From Escherichia coli (GTDB taxonomy: Bacteria; Pseudomonadota; Gammaproteobacteria; Enterobacterales; Enterobacteriaceae), in assembly GCF_003991155.1 (NCBI RefSeq), contig NZ_CP031294.1: DNA of 64,000 nucleotides; one strand, given 5' to 3'. Of this stretch, positions 31,732 to 57,782 are shown in pieces; position 1 is the first letter of the stretch; the number at the start of each line of letters is the position of its first letter. The notes below the pieces were generated by a model that was not told the DNA's origin, did not search any database, and saw nothing but the letters and a program-made list of their open reading frames with translations. A program made the translations under genes and the position numbers.

Positions 31732-33765
31732 TTACTTAACCTGGTGGCCTGGTTTAGCACCAGCATCCGGGCTTAACAGGAAGATATCTTTCCCGCCGGG
31801 GCCAGCAGCCATCACCATGCCTTCGGAGATACCGAAGCGCATTTTACGCGGAGCCAGGTTAGCCACCATAATGGTGTGACGACCAATCAGTGCCTGTGGG
31901 TCTGGATAAGCAGAACGGATGCCTGAGAAGACATTACGCTTTTCACCACCGAGATCCAGTGTCAGACGCAGCAGTTTGTCAGAACCTTCGACAAACTCCG
32001 CGTTTTCAATCAGCGCCACACGCAGGTCAACTTTGGCGAAGTCGTCAAAGGTGATGGTTTCCTGAATCGGGTCGTCAGCCAGTGGGCCAGTTACCGGTGC
32101 AGCTGTGGCTTTCACTTCTTCTTTGGATGCTTCCACCAGTGCTTCCACCTGTTTCATATCGATACGGTTATACAATGCCTTGAACGGATTCACTTTATGG
32201 CCCAGCAGCGGTTGCTGGATACCATCCCAGGTCAGTTCTGTATTCAGGAATGCTTCTGCACGTTCAGTCAGTTTCGGCAGTACCGGTTTCAAGTACGTCA
32301 TCAGCACGCGGAACAGGTTAATGCCCATAGAGCAAATCGCCTGCAGATCGGCATCGCGTCCTTCCTGCTTCGCCACCACCCACGGAGCCTGTTCATCGAC
32401 ATATCGGTTAGCCAGGTCAGCCAATGCCATGATTTCACGGATAGCTTTACCAAATTCGCGGCTTTCCCATGCTTCGCCAATCACTTCAGCGGCATCAGTA
32501 AAGGTTTTGTACAGTTGCGGGTCAGCCAGTTCGCTTGCCAGCACGCCGTCAAAACGCTTGTTGATAAAGCCTGCATTACGGGAGGCCAGGTTAACCACTT
32601 TGTTCACGATATCGGCATTCACGCGCTGAACGAAATCCTCCAGGTTGAGATCGATATCATCAATGCGCGAAGAGAGTTTCGCAGTGTAGTAGTAACGCAG
32701 GCTGTCGGCGTCAAAATGATTCAGCCAGGTGCTGGCTTTAATAAAGGTGCCGCGAGACTTGGACATCTTCGCGCCGTTCACCGTCACATAGCCGTGAACA
32801 AACAGGTTGGTCGGCTTGCGGAAGTTGCTGCCTTCCAGCATGGCAGGCCAGAACAGGCTGTGGAAGTAAACAATATCTTTACCGATGAAGTGGTACAGCT
32901 CGGCTGTGGAGTCTTTCTTCCAGTATTCATCGAAGCTGGTGGTATCGCCGCGCTTGTCGCACAGATTCTTGAAGGAACCCATGTAGCCAATCGGCGCGTC
33001 CAGCCAGACGTAGAAATATTTGCCCGGCGCGTTCGGAATTTCAAAACCGAAGTAAGGCGCATCGCGGGAGATATCCCACTGTTGCAGGCCGGATTCAAAC
33101 CACTCCTGCATTTTGTTCGCCACCTGCTCCTGCAACGCACCGCTGCGGGTCCATGCCTGCAACATTTCGCTGAAAGAGGGCAGATCAAAGAAGAAGTGTT
33201 CGGAATCACGCATTACCGGGGTAGCGCCAGAAACCACCGATTTCGGCTCGATCAATTCAGTCGGGCTATATGTTGCGCCGCAGACTTCACAGTTATCGCC
33301 GTATTGATCTGGCGCTTTACATTTCGGGCAGGTGCCTTTCACAAAACGATCCGGCAGGAACATGCCTTTTTCCGGGTCGTACAACTGAGAGATAGTGCGG
33401 TTTTTAATAAAACCGTTCTCTTTCAGGCGAGTATAGATAAGCTCAGACAGCTGGCGGTTCTCTTCGCTGTGCGTCGAGTGATAGTTGTCATAGCTGATGT
33501 TAAAGCCTGCGAAATCAGTCTGGTGTTCCTGACTCATTTCGCCAATCATCTGCTCCGGTGTGATACCAAGCTGCTGTGCTTTCAGCATGATCGGCGTACC
33601 GTGGGCATCGTCGGCACAGATGAAATTAACCTCGTGGCCGCGCATTCGCTGGTAACGAACCCAGACATCAGCCTGGATGTGCTCCAGCATATGGCCGAGG
33701 TGGATTGAGCCGTTAGCGTACGGCAGCGCGCACGTCACCAGAATTTTCTTCGCGACTTGGGTCAT
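31732..33765 (-). CDS. metG: methionyl-tRNA synthetase
   Basis: 677-aa product [29 protein letters not shown]... recalled as essentially E. coli MetG (HIGH motif, KMSKS, C-terminal tRNA-binding domain); start at ATG 33763-33765, ORF-track upstream extension rejected. Confidence 0.97.
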
Positions 33766-33922
33766 AGTAGGCATTACTTCTTTGTAGTGAAAAGGGGCTT
33801 GATAGTAACAAAATGGCCTTATGTCTGCCATGTGATAACAGCATTTCTCATAAATGATTAAATGTCGTAGCTGGAGTACACTACAAGGCGACAATTGCGC
33901 AAATTAAAATAAAGGAGACGGG

Positions 33923-35023
33923 ATGAGCGAGTCCAAATCGCCGGATGCCCTGAGAGCAATGGTAGCCGGTACGCTGGCTAATTTTCAGCACCCAACCCTG
34001 AAACACAACCTGACTACGCTTAAAGCGTTACACCATGTTGCGTTGATGGATGACACACTGCATGTCGAACTAATCATGCCTTTCGTGTGGAATAAGCCTT
34101 TTGAAGACCTGAAAGAGCAATGTAGTGGTGATCTGCTCCGTATCACTGGCGCAAAGGCTATTGACTGGAAGCTGTCGTACAACATTGCCACGCTTAAGCG
34201 CGTCAAAAACCAACCAGGCATTAATGGCGTTAAGAACATTATCGCCGTCAGCTCAGGCAAGGGCGGCGTGGGTAAATCCTCCACGGCGGTAAACCTGGCA
34301 CTGGCGTTGGCTGCTGAAGGTGCGAAAGTTGGTATTTTGGATGCCGATATCTATGGTCCATCAATTCCAACCATGCTGGGCGCGGAAAACCAACGTCCAA
34401 CCTCACCTGACGGTACTCACATGGCACCTATCATGTCTCATGGCCTGGCAACCAACTCTATTGGTTATCTGGTCACCGACGACAATGCAATGGTGTGGCG
34501 TGGACCGATGGCCAGCAAGGCGCTGATGCAGATGTTGCAGGAAACTCTATGGCCTGATCTGGACTATCTCGTTCTCGATATGCCGCCGGGCACTGGTGAT
34601 ATTCAGTTGACGCTGGCGCAGAACATTCCTGTAACTGGTGCGGTTGTGGTAACTACGCCGCAAGACATCGCGCTGATCGATGCGAAGAAAGGCATTGTGA
34701 TGTTCGAAAAAGTCGAAGTGCCGGTACTGGGTATCGTCGAAAACATGAGTGTGCATATTTGCAGTAACTGCGGTCATCACGAGCCAATTTTTGGCACCGG
34801 TGGCGCACAGAAACTGGCCGAGAAATACAACACGCAGTTGTTAGGCCAAATGCCACTTCATATCTCTCTTCGTGAAGATCTGGATAACGGAACACCAACC
34901 GTTATTAGTCGTCCAGATAGCGAATTTACGGCTATTTATCGTGACCTCGCAGATCGCGTTGCCGCCCAAATGTATTGGCAAGGTGAAGTAATACCTGGCG
35001 AAATCGCATTCCGCGCAGTGTGA
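33923..35023 (+). CDS. apbC: Fe-S cluster carrier ATPase ApbC/Mrp
   Basis: 366 aa; P-loop SSGKGGVGKSSTAVNLALALA; CxxC motif ICSNCGHHEP; divergent from metG as in Escherichia chromosome. Confidence 0.95.
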   Translation: MSESKSPDALRAMVAGTLANFQHPTLKHNLTTLKALHHVALMDDTLHVELIMPFVWNKPFEDLKEQCSGDLLRITGAKAIDWKLSYNIATLKRVKNQPGINGVKNIIAVSSGKGGVGKSSTAVNLALALAAEGAKVGILDADIYGPSIPTMLGAENQRPTSPDGTHMAPIMSHGLATNSIGYLVTDDNAMVWRGPMASKALMQMLQETLWPDLDYLVLDMPPGTGDIQLTLAQNIPVTGAVVVTTPQDIALIDAKKGIVMFEKVEVPVLGIVENMSVHICSNCGHHEPIFGTGGAQKLAEKYNTQLLGQMPLHISLREDLDNGTPTVISRPDSEFTAIYRDLADRVAAQMYWQGEVIPGEIAFRAV

Positions 35024-36151: not shown

Positions 36152-37710
36152 ATGAAAATGACAAGTATTCAACAACGTGCAGAGCTTCATCGCCAGATCT
36201 GGCAAATTGCTAACGATGTCAGGGGTTCAGTCGATGGATGGGATTTTAAGCAGTACGTTTTGGGCGCGCTTTTTTACCGTTTTATCAGCGAAAATTTTTC
36301 CAGTTATATTGAAGCCGGTGATGACAGTATCTGTTATGCGAAACTGGATGACAGCGTAATTACTGATGACATTAAAGACGATGCCATCAAAACTAAAGGC
36401 TACTTCATCTACCCCAGTCAGCTTTTCTGCAACGTAGCTGCGAAAGCAAATACTAATGACAGACTGAATGCAGATTTAAACAGCATCTTCGTTGCTATCG
36501 AAAGTTCTGCTTACGGTTATCCTTCAGAAGCTGACATCAAAGGTTTGTTTGCTGATTTCGATACCACCAGTAACCGCCTGGGTAACACCGTTAAAGATAA
36601 AAATGCCCGCTTGGCTGCGGTTCTGAAAGGGGTTGAAGGGCTAAAACTTGGTGACTTCCATGAACATCAGATTGACCTGTTCGGTGACGCCTATGAGTTC
36701 CTGATTTCTAACTATGCGGCGAATGCCGGTAAGTCCGGCGGCGAGTTCTTTACACCGCAGCACGTCTCTAAGCTGATTGCACAACTGGCTATGCACGGGC
36801 AGACCCACGTTAACAAAATCTACGACCCGGCAGCAGGCTCCGGTTCGCTGTTGTTGCAGGCGAAAAAACAGTTTGATGACCATATCATCGAAGAAGGTTT
36901 TTTTGGTCAGGAAATCAACCATACGACCTATAACCTGGCGCGTATGAACATGTTTTTGCACAACATCAACTACGACAAGTTTGATATCAAGCTGGGTAAT
37001 ACACTGACTGAGCCGCACTTCAGAGATGAAAAACCGTTTGATGCCATCGTTTCTAACCCGCCGTATTCGGTGAAATGGATTGGCAGCGATGACCCGACGC
37101 TGATTAACGATGAACGTTTTGCCCCGGCTGGCGTTCTGGCCCCCAAATCCAAAGCTGACTTTGCGTTTGTATTACATGCGCTGAACTATCTTTCGGCCAA
37201 AGGTCGCGCTGCGATTGTCTGCTTCCCAGGCATTTTTTACCGTGGCGGCGCGGAGCAGAAAATCCGTCAGTATCTGGTCGACAATAACTATGTCGAAACC
37301 GTGATTTCACTGGCACCGAATCTGTTCTTTGGCACCACTATTGCCGTCAATATTCTGGTGCTGTCTAAACATAAAACGGATACCAAAGTTCAGTTTATTG
37401 ATGCCAGCGAACTGTTCAAAAAAGAGACTAACAACAACATTCTGACCGATGCTCATATCGAACAGATTATGCAGGTATTTGCCAGCAAGGAAGATGTTGC
37501 TCATCTGGCGAAATCTGTTGCGTTTGAGACTGTTGTCGCGAATGACTATAACCTGTCGGTGAGCAGCTATGTGGAAGCGAAAGATACTCGCGAAATTATC
37601 GATATCGCTGAGCTGAATGCTGAGCTGAAAACCACGGTCAGCAAAATCGACCAGTTGCGTAAAGATATTGATGCGATTGTTGCTGAGATTGAAGGTAGCG
37701 AGGTACAGGC

Positions 37711-37714
<4 letters not shown>
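36152..37714 (+). CDS. hsdM: Type I restriction-modification methyltransferase subunit (Type IC, EcoR124 family)
   Basis: 520 aa; N-terminus [26 protein letters not shown] recalled as EcoR124-family HsdM; AdoMet motif [10 protein letters not shown]; NPPY catalytic motif. Confidence 0.95.
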
Positions 37715-38970
<1,256 letters not shown>

Positions 38971-39091
38971 TTGACCATTGCTACCGACCGGATCACCTTA
39001 ACATCCGGTCTATATAGAGACTATTTTTTACACGCCGGAAGTCGCCCTTAAAGCCCTTCCGGCCCTTGCCAGACGGCACAAAGGATGCGCT

Positions 39092-42000
39092 ATGACTCAT
39101 CAGACACACACCATTGCTGAATCCAATAACTTTATCGTTCTTGATAAGTACATCAAAGCCGAGCAAACAGGCGACAGCTACCAGAGCGAATCGGACCTGG
39201 AACGTGAACTGATTCAGGATCTGCGGAATCAGGGCTATGAATTTATTTCCGTAAAATCTCAGTCGGCGATGCTGGCCAACGTTCGGGAACAGCTTCAGAG
39301 CCTCAATGGTGTGATGTTTAATGACAGCGAGTGGCGGCGCTTCACGGAGCAGTATCTGGACAACCCCAGCGATGGTATTCTGGATAAAACCCGTAAAATC
39401 CATATCGACTATATCTGCGACTTTATTTTTGACGACGGGCGACTTGAGAACATCTATTTGATAGATAAAAAGAATCTCATGCGCAATAAGGTGCAGATTA
39501 TCCAGCAGTTTGAACAGACGGGTTCTCATGCTAACCGTTATGACGTCACGATCCTGGTTAATGGTTTACCGCTGGTGCAAATCGAACTAAAAAAACGCGG
39601 GGTGGCGATTCGTGAGGCTTTCAACCAGATACATCGTTACAGTAAAGAGAGTTTTAACAGCGAAAATTCCCTGTTTAAGTATCTGCAACTGTTTGTCATT
39701 TCTAACGGCACCGATACCCGTTATTTTGCCAACACGACAAAGCGCGATAAAAACAGTTTTGACTTCACCATGAATTGGGCGAAATCAGACAACACGCTGA
39801 TTAAAGACCTCAAAGACTTTACCGCTACCTTTTTCCAGAAACATACTCTGCTGAATGTTCTGGTGAACTACAGCGTTTTTGACAGTAGTCAGACGCTACT
39901 GGTGATGCGACCGTACCAGATTGCCGCCACCGAGCGCATTCTGTGGAAAATTAAGAGTTCCTTTACAGCGAAGAACTGGTCAAAACCGGAAAGCGGTGGG
40001 TATATCTGGCATACTACCGGTTCTGGTAAAACCCTCACCAGCTTTAAAGCCGCGCGTCTGGCAACAGAGCTGGACTTTATTGATAAAGTCTTCTTTGTGG
40101 TCGACAGGAAAGACCTCGATTACCAGACCATGAAGGAATATCAGCGTTTTTCGCCAGACAGCGTCAACGGCTCGGAAAATACCGCAGGCCTTAAACGAAA
40201 TCTGGATAAGGACGATAACAAAATTATCGTCACTACTATTCAGAAACTCAATAACCTGATGAAAGCAGAAAGCGACCTGCCTGTATATAATCAGCAAGTG
40301 GTGTTTATATTTGATGAATGCCACCGCAGCCAGTTTGGAGAAGCGCAGAAAAACCTGAAGAAGAAATTCAAACGCTATTATCAGTTTGGTTTTACCGGCA
40401 CCCCTATTTTCCCGGAAAACGCTTTAGGCTCAGAAACGACCGCCAGCGTATTTGGTCGTGAATTGCATTCGTATGTAATTACCGATGCGATTCGTGATGA
40501 AAAAGTGCTCAAATTCAAGGTGGACTACAACGATGTGCGGCCACAGTTTAAATCTTTAGAGACAGAAACCGACGAGAAAAAACTGAGTGCGGCTGAAAAT
40601 CAGCAGGCATTTCTTCATCCCATGCGTATACAGGAAATTACGCAATATATTCTGAATAACTTCCGCCAGAAGACCCACCGTACTTTCCCAGGTTCCAAAG
40701 GCTTTAATGCCATGCTGGCAGTGAGTAGCGTGGATGCCGCGAAAGCCTATTACGCGACGTTTAAACGGTTACAAGAGGAAGCAGCTAATAAATCGGCTAC
40801 CTATAAACCGCTGCGTGTTGCAACAATCTTCTCCTTTGCCGCCAATGAAGAACAAAATGCCATTGGTGAAATTTCCGATGAAACTTTTGATACCAGCGCA
40901 ATGGACAGCAGTGCTAAAGAGTTTCTTGACGCTGCAATTCGTGAGTATAACAGCTATTTTAAAACTAACTTCAGCACCGACAGTAACGGTTTTCAGAACT
41001 ACTATCGTGATTTAGCCCAACGGGTTAAAAATCAGGATATCGATCTGTTAATTGTCGTTGGGATGTTTTTAACCGGCTTCGACGCTCCAACATTGAACAC
41101 GCTATTCGTCGATAAAAACTTGCGTTTTCACGGCCTGATGCAGGCATTCTCCCGTACCAACCGCATTTATGACGCTACTAAAACCTTCGGTAACATCGTC
41201 ACTTTTCGGGATCTGGAACGCTCAACCATTGATGCCATAACGCTGTTTGGTGATAAAAATACTAAAAATGTGGTGTTAGAAAAGAGTTATGCTGAGTATA
41301 TGGAAGGCTTTACAGATGCTGCCACTGGTGAAGCTAAACGCGGCTTTATGGCAGTAGTTTCAGAACTGGAACAACGGTTCCCTGACCCTGCCAGTATTGA
41401 AAGTGAAAAACAGAAGAAAGACTTCGTAAAACTGTTTGGTGAATACCTGCGTGCCGAGAACATCCTGCAAAACTATGATGAATTTGCCACGCTGAAAGCC
41501 CTGCAACAAATCGATCTTAGCGATCCTGTTGCGGTAGAAAAATTCAAAGCAGAACATTATGTGGATGATGAAAAGTTCGCTGAATTGCAAACAATTCGTC
41601 TCCCTGCTGAACGCAAGATTCAGGATTATCGTTCTGCCTATAACGATATTCGCGACTGGCAGCGCCGTGAGAAAGAAGCTGAGAAAAAAGAGAAATCAAC
41701 CACTGACTGGGATGACGTAGTTTTTGAGGTCGATTTGCTGAAGTCTCAGGAAATAAACCTGGATTATATCCTTGGACTGATTTTCGAACACAACAGACAA
41801 AATAAAGGCAAGGGCGAAATGATCGAAGAGGTCAAACGCTTAATTCGTTCAAGCCTGGGGAACCGGGCGAAAGAGGGCCTGGTGGTCGATTTTATTCAGC
41901 AAACGAACCTGGATGATTTACCAGACAAAGCCAGTATCATTGAGGCATTCTTTACGTTTGCTCAACGCGAACAGCAACGTGAAGCAGAAGCATTGATAAA

Positions 42001-42208
42001 AGAAGAAAATCTCAATGAAGAGGCGGCGAAACGCTATATTCGCACGTCTTTAAAACGCGAATACGCCACCGAAAATGGCACAGAATTAAACGAGACATTA
42101 CCAAAACTTAGTCCGTTAAACCCGCAATATAAAACGAAAAAACAGACCGTTTTCCAGAAAATCGTCACGTTTATTGAAAAGTTCAAAGGAGTAGGTGGGC
42201 AGATATAG
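39092..42208 (+). CDS. hsdR: Type I R-M restriction endonuclease/translocase subunit
   Basis: 1038 aa, same length as EcoR124I HsdR; SF2 helicase motifs (GSGKT, FDECH), N-terminal nuclease region. Confidence 0.95.
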
Positions 42209-49378: not shown

Positions 49379-49933
49379 TTACACAATTTCAGAGGGTAAT
49401 TTAAAAAGTCCGTACTTATTACGTGCCTTAAAGAAGCATTGCATCATTAAGTTTGTGTCATATAAGGCACTATGTGCTTTAGTATGATCGTACATAAAGC
49501 CAAGAGAGAAGGCCAACTCTTCAAGGCGGGGACGTTTACCGTCTTCTGTGGCCCACAGGGAAAATAGAGTGTCAATCAATGGGATGTCTGGAAGCGAAAA
49601 ACCGTAACTTTTCAGCTCATGCCTAATAAACGGAATATCGAACGCTTCGCCGTTGTGGGCTATCCAAATATCGGAAGAAGAGAGATACGAAGCGACAGAT
49701 GAAGCGTGATCGGCTAGTAACGGCTCGGCGGCTAAATCTTCAAGACTGATGCCGTGTACCGCTTGCGCTTTCGGATCGATACTGCGACGCGGGTTGAACC
49801 GCATTACAAAACTATCAACCATTGTCTGTGTCTCCAGTTCATAGCGGGTAATTGCGATTTCAATAATTTTATGACCAGCAAGGAAATCCAGTCCCGTAGA
49901 CTCGATATCGATGCCTGCAACAATCGTTGTCAT
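49379..49933 (-). CDS. DnaQ-like 3'-5' exonuclease (DEDD family)
   Basis: Exo I GIDIESTG, Exo II AHNGEAFD, Exo III HSALYD. Confidence 0.8.
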   Translation of the reverse strand: MTTIVAGIDIESTGLDFLAGHKIIEIAITRYELETQTMVDSFVMRFNPRRSIDPKAQAVHGISLEDLAAEPLLADHASSVASYLSSSDIWIAHNGEAFDIPFIRHELKSYGFSLPDIPLIDTLFSLWATEDGKRPRLEELAFSLGFMYDHTKAHSALYDTNLMMQCFFKARNKYGLFKLPSEIV

Positions 49934-49942
49934 CAGAACTCC

Positions 49943-50362
49943 TTACAACTTCTTAGCGCCCTTAAGTAGTGCGCTACGTACAAATTGAGCCGCTTTTTTC
50001 AAAGTTTCTTCACTGGTTTCACAGACAATCGGATCTTTCCACTTACCTGACGCAGTGTTGAGAATATTGATTTGGTTGCTATCCAGACAAACAGAGATAT
50101 AAAGCACCGTGCCACCAGCCAGCATCAAATGCATAGGAAACAGAGGCTTTTTACTGTCTTCACTGAACTGAGACATGGCGATGTTAATGGCTTCACCTAC
50201 TTGTGCGCCAACAAGCCCCTGCGCAGTTTCGAATATGGCACGAATAGCCAGACGAGCCTCTCGATCGGTCATAAGCGACCGGGAATGTTCGTCCGCTACA
50301 CGAATCAAAGCCTCTGTTGTTTTCCGATCCAGTTCATCTTCAAGCAACATTTCACTAAACAT
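49943..50362 (-). CDS. hypothetical protein
   Basis: 139-aa ORF in replication/nucleotide-metabolism operon. Confidence 0.4.
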   Translation of the reverse strand: MFSEMLLEDELDRKTTEALIRVADEHSRSLMTDREARLAIRAIFETAQGLVGAQVGEAINIAMSQFSEDSKKPLFPMHLMLAGGTVLYISVCLDSNQINILNTASGKWKDPIVCETSEETLKKAAQFVRSALLKGAKKL

Positions 50363-50423: not shown

Positions 50424-51068
50424 CTAATGAACGGTCACTCGGCCACAGAACCGGTTTTCTATCTTTTCTACAGCGTTATCTAGCATTCTCATCACTGATC
50501 TGGCTCTTGCTTCAACCGTGCGATATCGGTTGGAAACGACGAAGGTTTGCAGATCTCCCCTTTGCGGATGCAGGTGAATTTTTGTCAGTTCCCCGCACAT
50601 CAACGCATCAATACGAGCGACATACAGACGGTCTAATGATGCTCGTTGTGATCGCAAGTAATCTCGCTCTGAGAGAGCGACTCCCGGGCGTAAGCCAGCA
50701 ATGGCGTTAAAGTTTGAAATAGCAGTTTTGTGGCAAAACTTTTCGATATCGAGGGCTAACTCAATACACCGATCTTCATTTGTATGGCCGACCAAATCCA
50801 ACGTGTAGGCCATAACATCAGCAGGTGTGCGATCGATAACAAAGCCTTCAACACCACGCGTAAGTAGCTCTATATGCTTTGCTATTTCCATTTGAATCTG
50901 AAGCCGCTCATATAGAGGCATAGACTCACCTACTCGAACACCGAGGCGGCTCATCAAACTTCCGACACCAGCATCCACGTAAGGGATTCCGTAATGTTTG
51001 TCGATATATTTAGCCAGGGTTGTTTTCCCACTGCCCTGAGCACCAGTGATCCCAATCCGGTAATCCAT
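50424..51068 (-). CDS. deoxynucleoside monophosphate kinase (P-loop)
   Basis: Walker A GAQGSGKTT; FVIDRTP motif; coupled to DHFR gene. Confidence 0.65.
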   Translation of the reverse strand: MDYRIGITGAQGSGKTTLAKYIDKHYGIPYVDAGVGSLMSRLGVRVGESMPLYERLQIQMEIAKHIELLTRGVEGFVIDRTPADVMAYTLDLVGHTNEDRCIELALDIEKFCHKTAISNFNAIAGLRPGVALSERDYLRSQRASLDRLYVARIDALMCGELTKIHLHPQRGDLQTFVVSNRYRTVEARARSVMRMLDNAVEKIENRFCGRVTVH

Positions 51069-51544
51069 TACGACCTTCTGTATACGATCTGCGAAAAGCC
51101 AGGCTCTTCCTCGCTGGCTCGTTGGGTATAAGCTGTTTCAACAGGCACAAAGCCTAAGTTACGCATCATGCTTGCCGGGAAGAATGCATCGGCGTTTGGT
51201 ACATCAACGCCGATGTGGGAGAGCCAAATCTCTTCAACATGCGGCATGAATAGCGAGTAAATTTGTTCCCCGCCAATCACCCACACAGGCTCTGGTAATC
51301 GCAACACATCATCCACACCAGCAGGGTAGAATCCATTTGGTACAAAGCCATGAGAGCGCGTCAAAACGAGGTTATGACGCTCTGGAAGAGGGCGTTTGAG
51401 ACTTTCCATCGTTTTACGCCCCATAACGACAGTGGCGTTTTTGGTGAGTCTCTTAAATAGCTTCAGATCGGTAGAACAACGCCAGGGGAGTTCATTCGCT
51501 ATGCCGATCTCATAGTTACGGCCAACAGCAGCGATCATCTTCAT
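51068..51544 (-). CDS. dihydrofolate reductase
   Basis: 158 aa; MIAAVGRNYEIGIANELPW, VVMGRKT motifs characteristic of DHFR. Confidence 0.85.
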   Translation of the reverse strand: MKMIAAVGRNYEIGIANELPWRCSTDLKLFKRLTKNATVVMGRKTMESLKRPLPERHNLVLTRSHGFVPNGFYPAGVDDVLRLPEPVWVIGGEQIYSLFMPHVEEIWLSHIGVDVPNADAFFPASMMRNLGFVPVETAYTQRASEEEPGFSQIVYRRS

Positions 51545-51954
51545 TTGCTCACCTCATAGATGACCGGTCGATGGTGAGAGTCGGCTAAAGCGGCACGGAG
51601 TCGAGGATCGTGCACCAGCGCAGCGATAAGCAGATCGCCTTTATGCTCCGCTAATGTGCGCTTAATATGCTTCTCATAACTGGTGCCATTCGGTACGAGA
51701 TGAAGCCAGTCATAATCAACGCCAAAATCTTTCAGCCATCGTTTAGTTGGCGCTTCAAGAGTTTCAGAGCGGCTACTGATAAGCACCACTTCAGCCCCTG
51801 AGCGAGCAAAACCACGCAACATACGGCTGGTGGGGAAAATGAGTTCATCACCGGCAATGAGCTGGCCTGCATCCGCGTCAGATACTGATTTACGATGGCT
51901 GGCATTTGCCAGCACACCTTCAATTTCGCATAAGACATACATACCTCTTGCCAT
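51541..51954 (-). CDS. hypothetical protein between thyA and DHFR genes
   Basis: Start moved to internal ATG (MARGMYVL) to avoid overlap with thyA. Confidence 0.35.
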   Translation of the reverse strand: MARGMYVLCEIEGVLANASHRKSVSDADAGQLIAGDELIFPTSRMLRGFARSGAEVVLISSRSETLEAPTKRWLKDFGVDYDWLHLVPNGTSYEKHIKRTLAEHKGDLLIAALVHDPRLRAALADSHHRPVIYEVSK

Positions 51955-51955
51955 A

Positions 51956-53059
51956 TCACACCGCCACTGGAACCTTGATCCACGGTAGAGGGTCATAGCC
52001 AAGAATTAAAACCTCGTCCCATTTGAAATCATCCAACTCTGACCATTCATGAGGGAAAATAACGACCGGATCTGAATGCTCTGGAGCCTGTCGTTTCATT
52101 AGCTCACACACACCTTCCATGTGGTTGTTGTACAAATGCACGTCAAAGCCAAAATGCACAAATGCACCGGCCATGTGACCCGTAATCTTCGCGAGAAAAT
52201 GAGTGAGAATGCCATAGCCAGCAATATTGAATGGCATACCAACAAAAGTGTCTACGCTACGCTGTACGAGGCAGGAGTTGAGGATGCGTTTGGGGATTCC
52301 AAGTTCATCCAGTTCAGCTTCAGTAACACTGCCGTCCATATCCAGATCGTATAGCATCTTGGTGTAGATAGACTCGTAACCGAGGCGACTGTGTTGAAGA
52401 CCAATGTCAGTTGCCATCGTTAAACGGGTTTCAAAATCCAGCTCACGACTCCACAAAGAGAAGACAAAGTGGCAAGGTGGCAGTTTCATATCCTCAAGCT
52501 CGCCTACGTTCCATGCGTTAAGCATGATGCGACGATCGGTAGGGTTCGTGCGCAGTGTATCGACAATACGCTGTAGCTGATCGATTTCACGGGACAGCAC
52601 TACGCGATCTTCACTGATACCCAGGTATCCCTCGACTTTGTACCCGCGTTCACGGAAAGTAGCGATCTTGCTCAGATATTCACTATGGCTCACGATGCGG
52701 GTATCTTCCCATCGACGCCACTGCTTACCGTAAACCGGCCCCAAATCGCCATTCTCATCGGCCCATGCATCCCAAATCTTAACGCCGTTATCCTTGAGAA
52801 ATTGGATGTTGCCCGTGCCTTTCAGATACCACTCAAGTTCGACAAGTAGTGGCTTAAGATTTACCGCCTTTCCAGAAATAAGCGGCACAGTCCCACCAGT
52901 AAGCATGTAGTAAGAGGGAACGTAGCAGGTGCTTAAAGTACCAGTGCCTGTGCGATCATCAGCCTGCACGCCGCTTTTAAGCACCGTCTCAATAACTTTT
53001 GCATACGATGCGTTTGTTACCTGACCGTTCGTATGCTCTCGATTCAAAAGGAGTGACAC
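51956..53059 (-). CDS. thyA: thymidylate synthase (ThyA family) with two insertions
   Basis: DRTGTGT, IWDAWADENGDLGPVYGKQWR, catalytic PPCH, PFNIAGY motifs; GTG start; 367 aa vs ~264 aa for E. coli ThyA. Confidence 0.9.
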   Translation of the reverse strand: MSLLLNREHTNGQVTNASYAKVIETVLKSGVQADDRTGTGTLSTCYVPSYYMLTGGTVPLISGKAVNLKPLLVELEWYLKGTGNIQFLKDNGVKIWDAWADENGDLGPVYGKQWRRWEDTRIVSHSEYLSKIATFRERGYKVEGYLGISEDRVVLSREIDQLQRIVDTLRTNPTDRRIMLNAWNVGELEDMKLPPCHFVFSLWSRELDFETRLTMATDIGLQHSRLGYESIYTKMLYDLDMDGSVTEAELDELGIPKRILNSCLVQRSVDTFVGMPFNIAGYGILTHFLAKITGHMAGAFVHFGFDVHLYNNHMEGVCELMKRQAPEHSDPVVIFPHEWSELDDFKWDEVLILGYDPLPWIKVPVAV

Positions 53060-53229
53060 AAAAACCTCACAAAGATAAGTAATTACTTATTCATCGTGTG
53101 AGTTTACATTCATTGAGAGAACAAGACCAGACAGATAAAAAAATGGTGGCCATAGGCCACCAAAACGAATAGTCATTCCAGAGTTTTATTACGCATGTTA
53201 AATATACACAGATAGATAACTACCTACAA

Positions 53230-54099
53230 TTATTTTTTGATCATTCCGTACATTGCTGAGGCTTTAGCTTGCTCAACAAAGGAGGATAAATCGACATCAC
53301 TATAGGTTGGAGACTTCAGAATCTTTCCATCGGAAATTCGAAAACCGATCATCTTATCGGTGCCATCAGCATGGCGGAATCCCAGATCTGAAGAGTCGTA
53401 TTTGCAGTTGGCCACAGCCTGGCGACGTTCCTCAACATCAGCAGGCCATAATTTTGTCATGTTAGACCGATGAATTTCGCCAACCAGCTCGACGACATTG
53501 ATACCGAGGAAATCAGCCAGTCGATAAGTCATCATGCACGCCACATAGATTTTGTTCATTACACGGCGCAGTTCCTGAATCAGCTCAGAATCCTTAACAG
53601 TCTTCTTCTCAAGTTTATCTGCCAGCTCTTCGAGCATACATGACGCCTCACGAGCTTCCTGAAATGGCATTGCCATATCATCGAAAACAGTGTTACCGGG
53701 CACAAAAATTGTCTGCATAAAGCGATCAATGCTCTGTTCCTGCGTGTAATAGGTCATGCCGGTAGAAATACCACCTTTGATGGCGACCATCGTACCAACA
53801 CCAACGTATAAAAAGTCGGCCATTGCATCCAGCAGTTGCTCAATATCCCCATTCATTGCGGCTGGAATACCTTCCACTACAGCTTCTTCATGAATCAGGC
53901 TTGCACGGAGACGAAGCAGCTCTGGTGTCGGCATAACGCGTCTCGGATGCTGGAAGAGTTCATGAAACTGATCGACCATCTTGTAAATACTTTCAGTGGC
54001 TACACCATGGCCTTCATGCAACTCATATGGTTCTGGCTTAAATCCAATGAGTCGATCGGTGGCAAGTTTCAGGTGGTCAGTCAGTTTGGTAAAGTTCAT
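53230..54099 (-). CDS. MazG-like nucleotide pyrophosphohydrolase domain protein (candidate)
   Basis: EExxE...DxxD pattern (LIHEEAVVEG...DIEQLLDAMAD); start moved to ATG 54097-54099 with AAGGA RBS. Confidence 0.4.
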   Translation of the reverse strand: MNFTKLTDHLKLATDRLIGFKPEPYELHEGHGVATESIYKMVDQFHELFQHPRRVMPTPELLRLRASLIHEEAVVEGIPAAMNGDIEQLLDAMADFLYVGVGTMVAIKGGISTGMTYYTQEQSIDRFMQTIFVPGNTVFDDMAMPFQEAREASCMLEELADKLEKKTVKDSELIQELRRVMNKIYVACMMTYRLADFLGINVVELVGEIHRSNMTKLWPADVEERRQAVANCKYDSSDLGFRHADGTDKMIGFRISDGKILKSPTYSDVDLSSFVEQAKASAMYGMIKK

Positions 54100-54176
54100 G
54101 CTAGTTTTGTTCCTTCTTAATTCTTGTGATCCATTGTGGCCCAGCGTTGCCAGGCCACATAATGCTTTGTATCGGT

Positions 54177-55319
54177 TTACAGGTCTGCAAACTGGCTTAG
54201 AGAAGCCTTGTCCACGGTAGAATCGATCTGACCTACCAGATATGTGCTTTGCTCTGCCTCTTGTGGTGCAATTTGCAGTGTGTCGGTTAACAACCACTTG
54301 TTCATCCAGACCAGCGGATCAGTGGTAACTTCTGGAAATAAAGCCTTCAGGCCAAGACGATTCATAGCCAGATTGGTTCGGTATTTTACATAGGTCTTCA
54401 GAATATCCGCGTTTAAACCAATCATCGAACCGTCTTTGAAGAGATAGTCTGCCCAGTTCATTTCTTGTTCGGCGACTGATTTCATGGTGTCGTAAATGAC
54501 GTTTTCTTCATCAGCAGCAATCTCTTTCCACAATAAACCTTCGCGACCGGTACGCATGAAGCGGATCATGCGTTCAGTTCCTTCGCAATGCAGAGCTTCA
54601 TCACGGGCAATAAAGCGCATAATTTTGGTGTTACCCTCAAGCAACTTCCGTTCGCCAAAGGCAAACGTACATGCAAAACTTACATAGAAACGGATCGCCT
54701 CAAGCGCATTAATGGACACTAACGTGCGGAAAAGCTGACGGTGCAAAGGATATGGCTCCCAGCCATATTCATTTACGTACAGACGCTCAAATTCCTTCTC
54801 GCCTAACGACTGGCGATCGCAGGTCATCCCATAAAGCCTGTCATATTCAGCAGAGATACTGATGGCTCGGTTGATGATTTCTTCATCCGTAACAATACCG
54901 TCAAAAACAATACTCGGATCGTCCACCATGCCACGAATAATGTGGGTGTAGCTGCGGCTATGGATAGTCTCAGAGAAAGACCACGTTTCAACCCACGTTT
55001 CCAGTTCAGGAATAGAGATAAGCGGCAGCAGAGTTGCGTTTGGGCTACGTCCCTGAACTGAATCGAGCAACGTTTGATAACGGAGATTACTCAGGAAAAT
55101 GTGGCGTTCGTGGTCCCGCAGCTTCGTATTGAAGTCGATGCGATCGCTCGAAATATCAACTTCTTCCGGCCGCCAGAAGAAAGACAATTGACGTTCAATC
55201 AACTTTTCAAAATCACGGTATTTTTGTTGATCGTAACGAGCCACGTTGACAGATTGTCCGAGGAACATAGGCTCTTTGGTTGCATCATTAGCACCCAAAC
55301 GGAACGTTGAATATGACAT
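54177..55319 (-). CDS. nrdB: ribonucleotide reductase class Ia beta subunit
   Basis: 380 aa, strongly similar to E. coli NrdB ([20 protein letters not shown]..., C-terminal YLVGQIDS). Confidence 0.95.
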
Positions 55320-55425
55320 GTGTTTTTCCTTTTTCTTTTTTGGTGCGTTTAAACAGGTTGTTATCTTATGTGTTTAAACAAGGCTTACAAATCAAAGAGA
55401 AGGTGGGGATATCCCCCACCATATG

Positions 55426-57741
55426 TCAGATTTTGCAGGCTCCGTCGCACTCATCTTCTGGCTCGACGGCTACAGCTTGCGTCAGTGGATTCTGCGGTTC
55501 GTCGTCATCACGCTTTCCTGCCCCATCTCTGGTGTTGTGGTAGTAAAGCGTTTTAACTCCCATCTTGTAGGCGAGAAGCAAATCTGACAGTAGCGTCATC
55601 ATTGGGACTTTATCGCCTTCAAAGCGAGAAGGGTCATAGTTGGTATTGGCTGAAATAGCCTGGTCAAAGAACTTCTGGATGATCGCCACCTTTGTCAGAT
55701 AGCCGCGGTTGTCCGGCATATCCCACAGGTATTCATACTGTTCCTTCAGTTTTTCAAACTCAGGCACGACCATCTTAACGATGCCGTCCTTAGAAGATTT
55801 CACCGACACCGGTCCACGAGGCGGTTCGATGCCGTTGGTGGAATTAGTGATCTGGCTGGAAGTCTCGCATGGCATTTGTGCCGTCAGTGTGGAGTTGCGA
55901 AGGCCGTATTTTGCAATACGTTCACGCAGTTCTTCCCACGGCATCTTTAACTCAAAGTTGGTTTCGCCACTTTCGTCTAATGAAGAACGGTAATGGTCGA
56001 TCGGCAACTGACCAATTGCGTACTTGGTCTGCTCAAACCAGTCACACTCACCTTTTGCTTCAGCAAGTCGGCAGCTGGCATCAAGAAGGTAATACTGGAT
56101 AGCTTCGAACGTTTCATGCACCAGTTTATTGCCAGCGGTATCAGAATAACGAACGCCATTCTTTGCCAGGTAATAAGCAAAGTTGGTTACACCAATTCCC
56201 AAGCTACGACGAGCTTTGGCAGGCACTTCGGCTGCCTCCATCGGATAGTCTTGATAATCCAGTAACGAATCCAGTGCAGCAACGGCATAGAACGCCACCT
56301 CTTTAAGAGACTCCAGTGAACGGATGGCTCCGAGGTTAAAAGCGGATAAAGTGCATAGCGCGATCTCACCGTTCGGGTCGTCGGTAAATGCCAGTGGACG
56401 AGTGGGTAGAGTGATCTCCATGCACAGGTTTGACTGGCGAACAGGTGCAAGAGCAGGAATGAAAGCGCCATGCTCGTTAATATGATCGACGTTCGCAATA
56501 TAAATTCGGCCCGTGGACGCTCGTTCCTGCATCAGAGATGAGAACAGCTCAATGGCAGGTACTGACTTCTTGCGAATTGAATCATCGGCTTCGTATTTAT
56601 GGTACAGCTTTTCAAACAGATCCTGGTCTGTGAAGAAGGCTTCGTACATATCAGGCACATCATGCGGGCTGAACAGAGTGATGTTCTCGCTTCTGACGAG
56701 TCGACGGTACATTAGACGGTTACTCATGACGCCGTAATCAAGATGGCGAACGCGGTTTTCATCAATACCACGGTTATTTTTCACCACCAGCAGACTTTCA
56801 ACTTCAAGATGCCAGATCGGGTAAAACGCTGTTGCTGCGCCACCACGAACACCACCTTGCGAGCAAGATTTAACAGCAGTCTGGAAATGCTTCAGGAATG
56901 GAATAACTCCGGTATGGGTGGCTTCACCATTGCGGATCTCACTGCCCAGCGCACGGATACGGCCAAAACCAATACCAATTCCAGCACGACGTGAAACGTA
57001 GTCGATAATTGCGGCTGAAGCTGCACTAATCCCTTTCAGACTATCGCCAGACTCAATCAGCACACAACTGGAGAACTGACGGGTTGGAGTACGGACGCCG
57101 GCCATGATTGGTGTGGGCAGAGACAGTTTGAACGTACTTGTAACGTCATAGAAACCTTTGACCATCTCCATACGTGTTTTGCCCGCGCAGTCGTCTTCCC
57201 AATTCTGGAACAGACACATGCCCACCAGCATATAGATATGTTGCGGGCCTTCGTGAATCTCACCAGTAACACGGTTTTGAACGAGGTATTTGCTTTGCAA
57301 CTGCACCGTAGCTGCATAGCCAAAAAGATCGTCACGTTTAGGCTTAATGTAATTGCCGAGTTCTTCGATCTCTTCAAATGAATAATGTGTCAGCAAATCC
57401 TTGTCATAAACGCCCTTGTTAACGTTCTTGACAATGTGTTGGTAGAAGTTCGGATAGTCGTAACGACCGAAGGCATCTTTGCGGATTTTAAAAATGTTCA
57501 GGCGGGCAGCCACCTGCGAGTAATTTGGTGCATCTGGTGAGATCAAATCAGCGGCAGATTTAACCAAAGCCTCATGCAACTGGCTGGTGGTAATCCCATC
57601 AAAAATGCTGGCCGCAGCTCCCATTGCTACAGCGGATGCGCTTACACCTCGAATGCCTTCTACGCCATACATTACGACGCGGTTGTATTTTTCTTCGGAT
57701 AACGGCTCTGTTTGGCCGTTACGTTTTACGATGCTTATCAT
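55426..57741 (-). CDS. nrdA: ribonucleotide reductase class Ia alpha subunit
   Basis: 771 aa, ATP-cone N-terminus, SLPTPIMAGVRTPTRQFSSCVLIE, NLCMEI, C-terminal CxxxxC tail. Confidence 0.95.
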   Translation of the reverse strand: MISIVKRNGQTEPLSEEKYNRVVMYGVEGIRGVSASAVAMGAAASIFDGITTSQLHEALVKSAADLISPDAPNYSQVAARLNIFKIRKDAFGRYDYPNFYQHIVKNVNKGVYDKDLLTHYSFEEIEELGNYIKPKRDDLFGYAATVQLQSKYLVQNRVTGEIHEGPQHIYMLVGMCLFQNWEDDCAGKTRMEMVKGFYDVTSTFKLSLPTPIMAGVRTPTRQFSSCVLIESGDSLKGISAASAAIIDYVSRRAGIGIGFGRIRALGSEIRNGEATHTGVIPFLKHFQTAVKSCSQGGVRGGAATAFYPIWHLEVESLLVVKNNRGIDENRVRHLDYGVMSNRLMYRRLVRSENITLFSPHDVPDMYEAFFTDQDLFEKLYHKYEADDSIRKKSVPAIELFSSLMQERASTGRIYIANVDHINEHGAFIPALAPVRQSNLCMEITLPTRPLAFTDDPNGEIALCTLSAFNLGAIRSLESLKEVAFYAVAALDSLLDYQDYPMEAAEVPAKARRSLGIGVTNFAYYLAKNGVRYSDTAGNKLVHETFEAIQYYLLDASCRLAEAKGECDWFEQTKYAIGQLPIDHYRSSLDESGETNFELKMPWEELRERIAKYGLRNSTLTAQMPCETSSQITNSTNGIEPPRGPVSVKSSKDGIVKMVVPEFEKLKEQYEYLWDMPDNRGYLTKVAIIQKFFDQAISANTNYDPSRFEGDKVPMMTLLSDLLLAYKMGVKTLYYHNTRDGAGKRDDDEPQNPLTQAVAVEPEDECDGACKI

Positions 57742-57756
57742 GTATCACCAAATAAA

Positions 57757-57782
57757 GAGGGCCACTATATTTAGTGGCCCAT
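57757..57782 (-). terminator. hairpin terminator candidate between resolvase-like gene and nrdA
   Basis: gggccacta-aatat-agtggccc followed by T-rich run on minus strand. Confidence 0.45.

Follow-up and report, generated by a model that had tools for sequence, protein, structure and literature searches.

The window, a 64,000-nucleotide stretch of Escherichia coli contig NZ_CP031294.1, is an SSU5-like phage-plasmid. In the region described here it is 99.0% identical to Escherichia phage Cyrano and 77% identical to SSU5, and the gene order is common to all three. All of the genes are on the minus strand. From the highest coordinates downward, these are nrdA (55426..57741), a 771-aa class Ia ribonucleotide reductase large subunit identified from its ORF and from the RNR alpha annotation of its counterpart in both Cyrano and SSU5; nrdB (54177..55319), the 380-aa small subunit (PF00268, E=4.4e-46); a 289-aa NTP pyrophosphohydrolase of the MazG superfamily, DR2231-like or dimeric-dUTPase-like (53230..54099; PF01503); a 367-aa ThyA-type thymidylate synthase (TS; 51956..53059; PF00303 and TIGR03284); a 137-aa HAD/PNKP-phosphatase-like protein (51541..51954); a 158-aa DfrA51-like dihydrofolate reductase (DHFR; 51068..51544; PF00186, E=1.6e-34); and a 214-aa P-loop protein, AAA_28-like or nucleoside-monophosphate-kinase-like (50424..51068; PF13521, E=2e-9), possibly a dNMP kinase. 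The conserved block ends at 49379..50362 with a conserved hypothetical protein of 139 aa (49943-50362) and a DnaQ-like 3'-5' exonuclease of 184 aa (49379-49933; PF00929, E=2.5e-23); SSU5 and a distant relative have the same gene order here. The family matches for the TS, MazG and DHFR genes are strong homology signals and not chance.

The TS ORF begins with GTG, preceded by GAGG 5 nt upstream. The HAD start lies 1 nt past the TS stop, HAD and DHFR meet at ATGA, and DHFR and the kinase-like gene meet at TAATG. In the 170-bp spacer between MazG and TS, a G+C hairpin followed by a run of seven T residues (53144..53162, minus strand) resembles a terminator by consensus match only, and strict co-transcription of these two genes may therefore not hold. 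The order nrdA-nrdB-PRA-PH-TS-HAD-DHFR-AAA_28-x-RNase_T was also that of a relative with only 51% identity in its TS and 28% in its MazG. Of 5426 complete E. coli genomes, 231 contain the segment, nearly always on a plasmid of about 110 kb; 673 PLSDB plasmids have it as well. SSU5-type plasmids are carried by numerous strains of E. coli, Klebsiella and Salmonella.

The TS matched PF00303 with E=2.3e-78 and 263.5 bits (cut-off 24.3) and the NCBIfam model TIGR03284 with 219 bits (cut-off 108.35). Its AF2 model (pLDDT 95.6) superposed on E. coli ThyA (1TYS) with a TM score of 0.94 when normalised to the target. No solved TS structure spans the inserts described below, and the top TM score normalised to the query was 0.72. 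The fold is that of E. coli ThyA (EC 2.1.1.45), all residues for catalysis and for binding dUMP and folate are conserved, and the C-terminus is the same. The arginines that bind the dUMP phosphate (Ec R21, R126', R127' and R166) correspond to R36, R176, R177 and R267; C196 (codon 52472-52474, minus strand), H197, S268 (Ec S167), Y110 (Ec Y94) and E74 (Ec E58) are also present, and this set of nine residues was invariant among 82 homologues. Conserved positions overall were R36, E74, W96, W99, Y110, R176, R177, L193, C196, H197, Q266, R267, S268, D270, N278, D306, H308 and Y310. The chain terminates in -PVAV367 at the position of Ec I264, leaving the ThyA C-terminus intact.

Published diagnostic rules for this superfamily state that N177D gives dCMP specificity, L143D/E gives hydroxymethylation, and D169N gives 5-hydroxy-dCMP (PMC13326640). 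The four diagnostic positions (Ec 143, 147, 169 and 177) are L193, H197, D270 and N278 in the TS, all in the dTMP state, and include both the water-excluding Leu (Ec 143) and the dUMP-selectivity Asn (Ec 177). L-C-H-D-N occupied the diagnostic positions in all 150 complete representative members of the clade described below. These residues support a ThyA-type enzyme and predict normal dTMP as its product rather than a modified base, in line with the primary reading of the initial annotation, which had also proposed an alignment to ThyA and the dUMP and dCMP hydroxymethylases. In that alignment the TS sided with ThyA at every discriminating position. T4 gp42, SPO1 gp29 and the RB69/DLP3 5-hydroxy-dCMP synthases share with the TS the superfamily, the Cys nucleophile, phage encoding and an NTP-pyrophosphatase partner, but they do not have the ThyA C-terminus that the TS keeps. 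A dCMP hydroxymethylase of the gp42 type was rejected, with N278 and L193 in the TS where gp42 has Asp at both positions (D179 and D145). Likewise rejected was a dUMP hydroxymethylase of the gp29 type, which has Asp at Ec 143 (D159) and Asn at Ec 147 (N163) where the TS has L193 and H197 and, further on, a ThyA C-terminus. A 5-hydroxy-dCMP synthase of the RB69 gp48 or DLP3 gp80 type, which combines Asn at Ec 169 with N177D and L143E, was rejected on D270, N278 and L193.

The initial annotation had described a ThyA homologue about 100 aa longer than host ThyA, with two insertions flanking the catalytic Cys, and the alignment bore this out. The TS exceeds E. coli ThyA (264 aa) by 103 aa, most of which lies in two inserts on either side of Cys196 (Ec C146): S1, residues 119-155 (52595..52705), and S2, residues 204-260 (52280..52450), both on the minus strand and placed by alignment to E. 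coli ThyA. phmmer aligned the two proteins in three blocks (residues 18-118 with Ec 3-102, 156-203 with Ec 106-153, and 261-367 with Ec 160-264), so that the 103 extra residues divide into 15 at the N-terminus, 1, 34 in S1, 51 in S2, and 2. The 15-aa N-terminal extension and the two inserts set the TS apart from E. coli ThyA. S1 enters between Ec W101 and G106, which we take to be the site of the second eukaryotic TS insert (human 146-153), consistent with the phmmer block boundaries; S1 is four times the length of that human insert. It was modelled as three short strands and two short helices, with W117, D119, G139 and Y140 conserved. S2 takes the place of the beta-hairpin turn at Ec 154-159 and was modelled as three helices, with E211, R212, D251, P256, R258 and L260 conserved. 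The inserts were modelled not as surface loops, which the initial annotation had named in its refuting condition, but as ordered sub-structures with pLDDT of about 95-98. They leave the fold at the far end of strand beta-iii/iv and in the loop before helix G. Judged by these exit points from the known fold, and not by distances, the inserts would lie away from the active site and appear to leave the catalytic apparatus unchanged.

Both inserts were kept in at least 150 clusters (50% identity), ranging from siphovirus-type phage-plasmids to jumbo phages. An S2-only profile was too weakly conserved for searching and was replaced by one that ran from S1 through the catalytic core to S2. The large, virus-associated ThyA clade that the inserts mark takes in at least 150 metagenomic clusters as well as SSU5-type phage-plasmids and SPN3US-like jumbo phages. 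We did not find a description of this clade in the literature on insert-bearing phage TS, SPN3US TS and T4 TS inserts. Within the clade, conservation was 88% for G139, 90% for R212, 97% for P256, 81% for R258 and 87% for L260. In other members, additional inserts of 60-200 aa occur at Ec 83-94, and inteins are present in some. The TS of SPN3US, Machina, Wellington, CR5, SEGD1 and Proteus phage 7 have both inserts at the same positions and share with our TS the motifs W-x-D-[TV]-[RK]-[ILV]-V, G-Y, E-R and L-D-x3-[IV]-P-x-R-x-L. Identity to the TS described here is about 37-41%, with the jumbo-phage core nearer to enterobacterial ThyA. These jumbo phages have an all-alpha NTP-PPase gene 2-3 kb from the TS, but no adjacent DHFR was recognised beside their TS, unlike in the window.

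Thymidylate synthases with surface inserts that are catalytically normal include the L. casei enzyme (a 50-aa small-domain insert), the human enzyme (117-128 and 146-153) and T4 Td. Finer-Moore et al. reportedly suggested in 1994 that T4 Td contacts the dNTP-synthetase complex through its inserts. To our knowledge, no characterised TS has an S2-like insert replacing the beta-iii/beta-iv hairpin turn. Two readings of S1 and S2 can be weighed. They could be neutral decorations, either expansions that are tolerated because the surface there is prone to indels, or remnants of mobile insertions. In the ThyA fold, indels occur naturally at both positions, S1 and S2 vary widely in length and sequence, some members have only one of them, other members have the extra inserts and inteins mentioned above, and neither S1 nor S2 resembles any Pfam family (the isolated insert peptides gave nothing above noise in Pfam at E up to 10). 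However, neutrality sits poorly with the retention of both inserts across the clusters, with the strongly conserved G139, R212, P256, R258 and L260, and with the high pLDDT of the inserts. The query also lacks Hint or other intein motifs, which argues against a mobile relic. An intein or mobile-element origin was rejected, as true intein-bearing TS are recognisable (P0229). We regard neutrality as possible but rather doubtful. Alternatively, S1 and S2 could together form a conserved accessory sub-domain that gives the TS a property absent from cellular ThyA; this we offer as a speculative proposal with a low likelihood. Such a property might be a channelling complex into which partners (the dUTPase-like MazG, DHFR or the kinase) dock, a dimer interface that is extended or altered, or evasion of host control or defence aimed at TS, and the conserved E211-R212 and P256-x-R258 would then be the functional contacts.

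The MazG-type neighbor named in the initial annotation was confirmed (PF01503, PRA-PH, MazG superfamily; 35.6 bits, cut-off 21.3). Although the mechanically called ORF reaches back to a GTG at 54297, the start in all 25 homologues is the ATG at 54099. The metal-binding acidic residues E71, E72, E76, D91 and D95 showed little or no variation across 26 homologues, and an HRxN-x-SK motif is conserved. The all-alpha fold superposed on members of the all-alpha NTP pyrophosphohydrolase superfamily; the best PDB sequence match, although weak, was DR2231, and the top structural neighbors were dimeric dUTPases. The acidic metal-binding helices are shared with DR2231 of Deinococcus and with the dimeric dUTPases of Leishmania, Campylobacter and a staphylococcal phage. 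However, the protein is roughly double DR2231 in length. Relative to DR2231 it has two insertions, at about residues 105-188 and 218-250 (roughly 85 and 30 aa), and its identity to the dUTPase relatives is low (12-24%); its dUTPase activity is putative. RefSeq names it a HisE phosphoribosyl-ATP pyrophosphohydrolase; we rejected this name given the lack of any NCBIfam match at E<=0.01 and its neighbors nrdAB, thyA and DHFR. The family is unrelated to T4 gp56 by hhalign (probability 0.2%). No relation to the MazG of SPN3US was detected, the jumbo-phage protein being of a different subfamily, and the TS/MazG pairing in jumbo phages is thus analogous at the superfamily level and not orthologous. 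A PRA-PH protein adjoining a metagenomic insert-bearing TS was related to the MazG-like protein of the window (probability 92.5%).

Judging from its closest relatives and its position between nrdB and thyA, we infer that the MazG-like protein most likely acts as a hydrolase that yields dUMP from dUTP and perhaps from dUDP. As the DR2231 match was weak and Foldseek returned no match for the model, this substrate is assigned from fold and context only. The protein could instead be a general NTP pyrophosphatase with a house-cleaning role, a dCTPase, or an enzyme of anti-defence or host takeover acting on a signalling nucleotide, in which case its position beside TS would be only loosely functional. 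The functional diversity of the MazG superfamily allows for this, DR2231-type enzymes are described as promiscuous, and the weak match to DR2231, the terminator-like hairpin before TS, the missing NCBIfam match, and two large insertions that have no characterised counterpart point in the same direction. In contrast, the top structural neighbors were specifically dimeric dUTPases, the gene is flanked by nrdB and thyA in all relatives examined, no separate dut is annotated in the element, and an all-alpha NTP-PPase is found within a few kb of the insert-bearing TS in jumbo phages. Taken together, a role other than that of a dUTPase seems to us the less likely reading, though worth keeping in view.

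The adjacent DHFR, also correctly named in the initial annotation, is 91% identical to that of SSU5, where the dfrA51 product was found by experiment to be an active, functional and trimethoprim-resistant DHFR (PMC12217456). The HAD protein matched PF25109 with E=1.1e-4, below the cut-off, and Pnkp1 (4xrp) with E=1.9e-5; its motif I reads E-I-E-G in place of D-x-D-G, so that Glu replaces both catalytic Asp residues. The P-loop protein matched phrog_2107, "thymidylate kinase", with E=2.9e-10, PDB gave only weak matches to P-loop proteins, and comparisons with Pfam, PHROG, NCBIfam and PDB gave no specific kinase family. Synthesis of dTMP oxidises the folate cofactor, in contrast to the hydroxymethylases, as is established from their mechanisms. 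A DHFR coupled to the synthase therefore fits dTMP synthesis.

Our preferred reading, to which we assign a probability of roughly 0.78, is that the region is a deoxynucleotide-supply operon of an SSU5-type phage-plasmid that makes ordinary dTMP. NrdAB would convert NDPs to dNDPs, and the MazG-like protein would convert dUTP (perhaps also dUDP) to dUMP, keeping uracil out of DNA while feeding the TS. The 367-aa ThyA homologue would use dUMP and methylene-tetrahydrofolate to give dTMP and dihydrofolate, the translationally coupled DHFR would regenerate tetrahydrofolate, and the coupled P-loop protein would probably phosphorylate the product. S1 and S2, as ordered add-ons where the surface of the ThyA fold has two indel sites, would most likely have a structural or protein-protein role, by extending the dimer edge or by docking partner enzymes. 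The nucleotide module of T4 (nrdAB, gp56 dCTPase/dUTPase, td, frd and gp1 dNMP kinase) follows the same logic in its set of enzymes; unlike it, the module described here has no gp42 homologue, and its genes are contiguous and translationally coupled.

The initial annotation had also raised an altered pyrimidine pool. On such a reading the TS would be a dUMP or dCMP hydroxymethylase or a dCMP hydroxylase, MazG would clear a canonical dNTP, and the DNA of the element would contain a modified pyrimidine. Pairs of a phage TS homologue and an NTP pyrophosphatase act in this way in T4 and SPO1, gp29 of SPO1 is similarly long (383 aa), and hypothetical ORFs are numerous in the element; however, with all of the discriminating positions in the dTMP state and the ThyA C-terminus intact this reading is not supported, and the functional, coupled DHFR and plasmid replication in hundreds of routinely sequenced strains make it very improbable. 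The resemblance to gp29 is 19% identity, and the excess length of gp29 is a divergent C-terminal region of about 150 aa, which rules out S1/S2-type inserts as its cause. Moreover, no 5-hmdU kinase (5-HMUDK), aGPT-Pplase, glycosyltransferase or amino-acid transferase is annotated genome-wide in Cyrano, the closest annotated relative, where many ORFs are hypothetical, and no thymidine-hypermodification enzyme was found among the window ORFs that were profiled.

SSU5-type phage-plasmids should thus not be counted as modified-pyrimidine elements on the TS/MazG pair alone. Positions Ec 143, 147, 169 and 177, together with the C-terminus, provide a triage checklist for long phage TS homologues. The insert-bearing ThyA clade is widespread in phage-plasmids and jumbo phages, usually near an all-alpha NTP pyrophosphatase, and should the inserts turn out to mediate complexes or to alter regulation, it would offer a compact model for the customisation of a housekeeping enzyme by viruses. 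Also clinically relevant is the operon's trimethoprim-insensitive DHFR of the DfrA51 type, so that its linkage to a TS and a supply of dUMP may bear on antifolate tolerance in carrier strains.

The 367-aa thymidylate synthase (TS; window 51956-53059, minus strand) scored far beyond the curated ThyA thresholds of PF00303 (E=2e-78) and TIGR03284 (219 bits against a cut-off of 108). The initial annotation had described a ThyA homologue about 100 aa longer than host ThyA, with insertions flanking the catalytic Cys region and a MazG-type neighbor, and each of these points held. Alignment to E. coli ThyA gave three blocks and 103 residues in excess: 15 at the N-terminus, 34 in insert S1 (residues 119-155), 51 in insert S2 (residues 204-260), and 3 scattered. 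Catalytic Cys196 falls between S1 and S2, and the neighboring 289-aa open reading frame passes the PF01503 (MazG superfamily) threshold. The Cyrano record (OV696614.1, 72630-73733) labels the TS gene 'ThyX Thymidylate synthase'; flavin-dependent ThyX identity was rejected, as the product is ThyA-type by PF00303.

It had also been hinted that the enzyme could belong with those by which phages modify pyrimidines. Residue rules for phage TS homologues were taken from a 2026 study (PMC13326640), in which, by E. coli ThyA (Ec) numbering, Asn at 177 gives specificity for dUMP and Asp for dCMP, a hydrophobic Leu at 143 keeps water out whereas hydroxymethylases have Asp or Glu, and D169N marks 5-hydroxy-dCMP synthases. 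We aligned the query with E. coli ThyA, T4 gp42, and SPO1 gp29, the last two taken from phage genomes. The query has L193, H197, D270, and N278 at Ec L143, H147, D169, and N177, as ThyA does; the corresponding residues are D, T, D, and D in gp42 and D, N, D, and N in gp29. The reading as a pyrimidine-modifying homologue is therefore not supported, the query having L193 and N278 where gp42 has Asp at both, and D270 rather than the D169N change; the hint fails every available residue-level test. At 383 aa, SPO1 gp29 is long too, but it shares only 19% identity with the query, has the CMP hydroxymethylase MilA as its nearest solved relative, and carries its additional residues in a C-terminal region and not at S1 or S2.

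Ec R21, E58, W80, W83, Y94, R126, R127, Q165, R166, S167, D205, H207, and Y209 are all conserved in the query. Its C-terminus, -PVAV, ends exactly where ThyA ends; in classical TS the C-terminus closes over folate. A coupled DHFR (51068-51544, minus strand) fits an enzyme that oxidizes its own folate cofactor, and no thymidine-hypermodification genes are annotated across the whole Cyrano genome. Because of the dTMP-state residues, the ThyA C-terminus, the adjacent coupled DHFR, and the lack of annotated hypermodification genes, ordinary dTMP synthesis, the reading initially favored, is strongly supported at the sequence level. The DHFR is 91% identical to that of SSU5, the reported carrier of dfrA51, which gives trimethoprim resistance when expressed (PMC12217456), and because of this identity it is probably trimethoprim-insensitive.

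The inserts are modelled as ordered sub-structures rather than surface loops. In an AlphaFold2 prediction from an alignment of 82 homologues (mean pLDDT 95.6; 95-98 in the insert regions), S1 consists of two short helices and three strands, also short, and S2 of three helices. The model superimposed on E. coli ThyA with a TM of 0.94, normalized to the target; no solved TS covered the extra parts, the best query-normalized TM being 0.72. Neither a Pfam family resembling S1 or S2 nor intein motifs in them were found. S1 lies at the second eukaryotic insert site (human 146-153). S2 replaces the beta-iii/beta-iv hairpin turn: it follows interface residue Ec Y153 (human Y202) by two residues, where the strand that starts with the catalytic Cys ends. 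From this position S2 would lie along the edge of the dimer interface, far from the active site of its own subunit.

A tblastn search of phage genomes found the same architecture at 37-41% identity in SPN3US-like jumbo phages, including SPN3US, Machina, Wellington, CR5, SEGD1, Proteus phage 7, and others; in alignment, both inserts were at the same positions and shared motifs with the query. S1 and S2 are thus not peculiar to this element. A search of 1.84 billion proteins with a profile that ran from S1 through the catalytic core to S2 yielded at least 150 clusters (50% identity) at E<=1e-30. Nearly all have both inserts, with S1 or S2 alone occasionally seen, and in all complete members the diagnostic positions are L-C-H-D-N. 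Conservation inside the inserts is 81-97% at G139, R212, P256, R258, and L260 (n = 77 diverse members). In many members, 60-200 aa are also inserted at Ec 83-94, the L. casei/eukaryotic insert site; this third insert brings metagenomic members (P0190-P0338) to 400-560 aa. A few have inteins directly after the catalytic region (e.g., P0229, 700 aa). The clade contigs examined resemble jumbo phages (292 and 356 kb) or small phage fragments. The two ordered inserts are the hallmark of a widespread virus-associated ThyA clade, of which our literature searches found no description. Both the enzyme and the element that carries it are well known; this TS is a structural variant.

The TS gene lies in a minus-strand block that runs nrdA (55426-57741), nrdB (54177-55319), the MazG-like gene (53230-54099), TS, a 137-aa HAD/PNKP-phosphatase-like gene (51541-51954), DHFR, a 214-aa P-loop kinase-like gene (50424-51068), a conserved hypothetical gene, and a DnaQ-like exonuclease gene. 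The TS/HAD junction is a 1-nt spacer, HAD/DHFR is ATGA, and DHFR/kinase-like is TAATG; these four genes are translationally coupled. The 170-bp MazG/TS spacer contains a terminator-like G+C hairpin with a T7 run (53144-53162, minus strand). Further such hairpins, also followed by T runs, occur in the nrdA/nrdB spacer (55402-55420, minus strand) and upstream of nrdA (57759-57780, minus strand). They could be attenuators or mRNA-stabilizing structures within the operon; the overall number of terminator-like hairpins is no higher than in shuffled sequence. In the HAD protein, E-I-E-G (YVLCEIEGVLAN) replaces the catalytic D-x-D-G of HAD phosphatases. The SSU5 homologue has the same change, and a distant syntenic homologue (L011:7076-7516) retains 'CDLDGG'. 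Glu in place of both catalytic Asp in this lineage suggests that the enzyme is altered or inactive.

The MazG-like protein matched no NCBIfam model. RefSeq plasmid records name it 'phosphoribosyl-ATP pyrophosphohydrolase', a superfamily-level label only, for which the context gives no support. Its top PDB sequence match was DR2231, a Deinococcus MazG-like enzyme with dUTPase activity (E=1.5e-3 with a single sequence, 7e-5 with a 26-member profile). The alignment spans all of DR2231 in three colinear blocks and leaves two insertions, one about 85 aa long and the other about 30 aa. Acidic residues E71, E72, E76, D91, and D95 and the motifs H-R-S-N-M-T-K and S-D-G-K-I-L-K-S-P are invariant or nearly so. 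No second dUTPase is annotated in the element. As the most economical reading, we infer that the protein would convert dUTP (or dUDP) to dUMP, between the RNR and TS steps.

The order nrdA-nrdB-PRA-PH-TS-HAD-DHFR-AAA_28-x-RNase_T recurs on a 2.03-Mb bacterial chromosome and a 20-kb contig, with 51% identity for TS and 28% (E=3e-30) for the MazG-like protein. The chromosomal locus (CP071326.1, 804763-817824) has the whole nrdAB-to-exonuclease block with a shorter, 242-aa MazG-like protein, suggesting that it is a relative of the SSU5-type module, either integrated or ancestral. Jumbo phages with the insert-bearing TS also carry an all-alpha NTP pyrophosphatase gene a few kb away; one of these proteins is related to the MazG-like protein here (hhalign probability 92.5%), and that of SPN3US showed no relation.

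Across 51000-55400, the DNA shares 99.0% identity with Escherichia phage Cyrano and 77% with Salmonella phage SSU5, and the gene order is the same; because of this, the window is assigned to an SSU5-type phage-plasmid. The 2.1-kb TS/MazG segment is 100% identical to ~110-kb plasmids of several E. coli strains. It was present in 231 of 5426 complete E. coli genomes, where 232 of 234 places were plasmids, and in 673 PLSDB plasmids, chiefly of Klebsiella, Escherichia, Enterobacter, and Salmonella. A complete type I restriction-modification system (HsdM, 36152-37714; HsdS, 37711-38970; HsdR, 39092-42208; all plus strand) occupies a low-GC stretch (~0.41) at 36152-42208; it looks like variable-region cargo, because the equivalent part of the Cyrano genome has no annotated counterparts. 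The phage-plasmid also carries, at 31732-35023, a full-length, 720-aa methionyl-tRNA synthetase gene (31732-33894, minus strand) adjoining a gene for an Mrp/NUBPL-type P-loop ATPase (33923-35023, plus strand).
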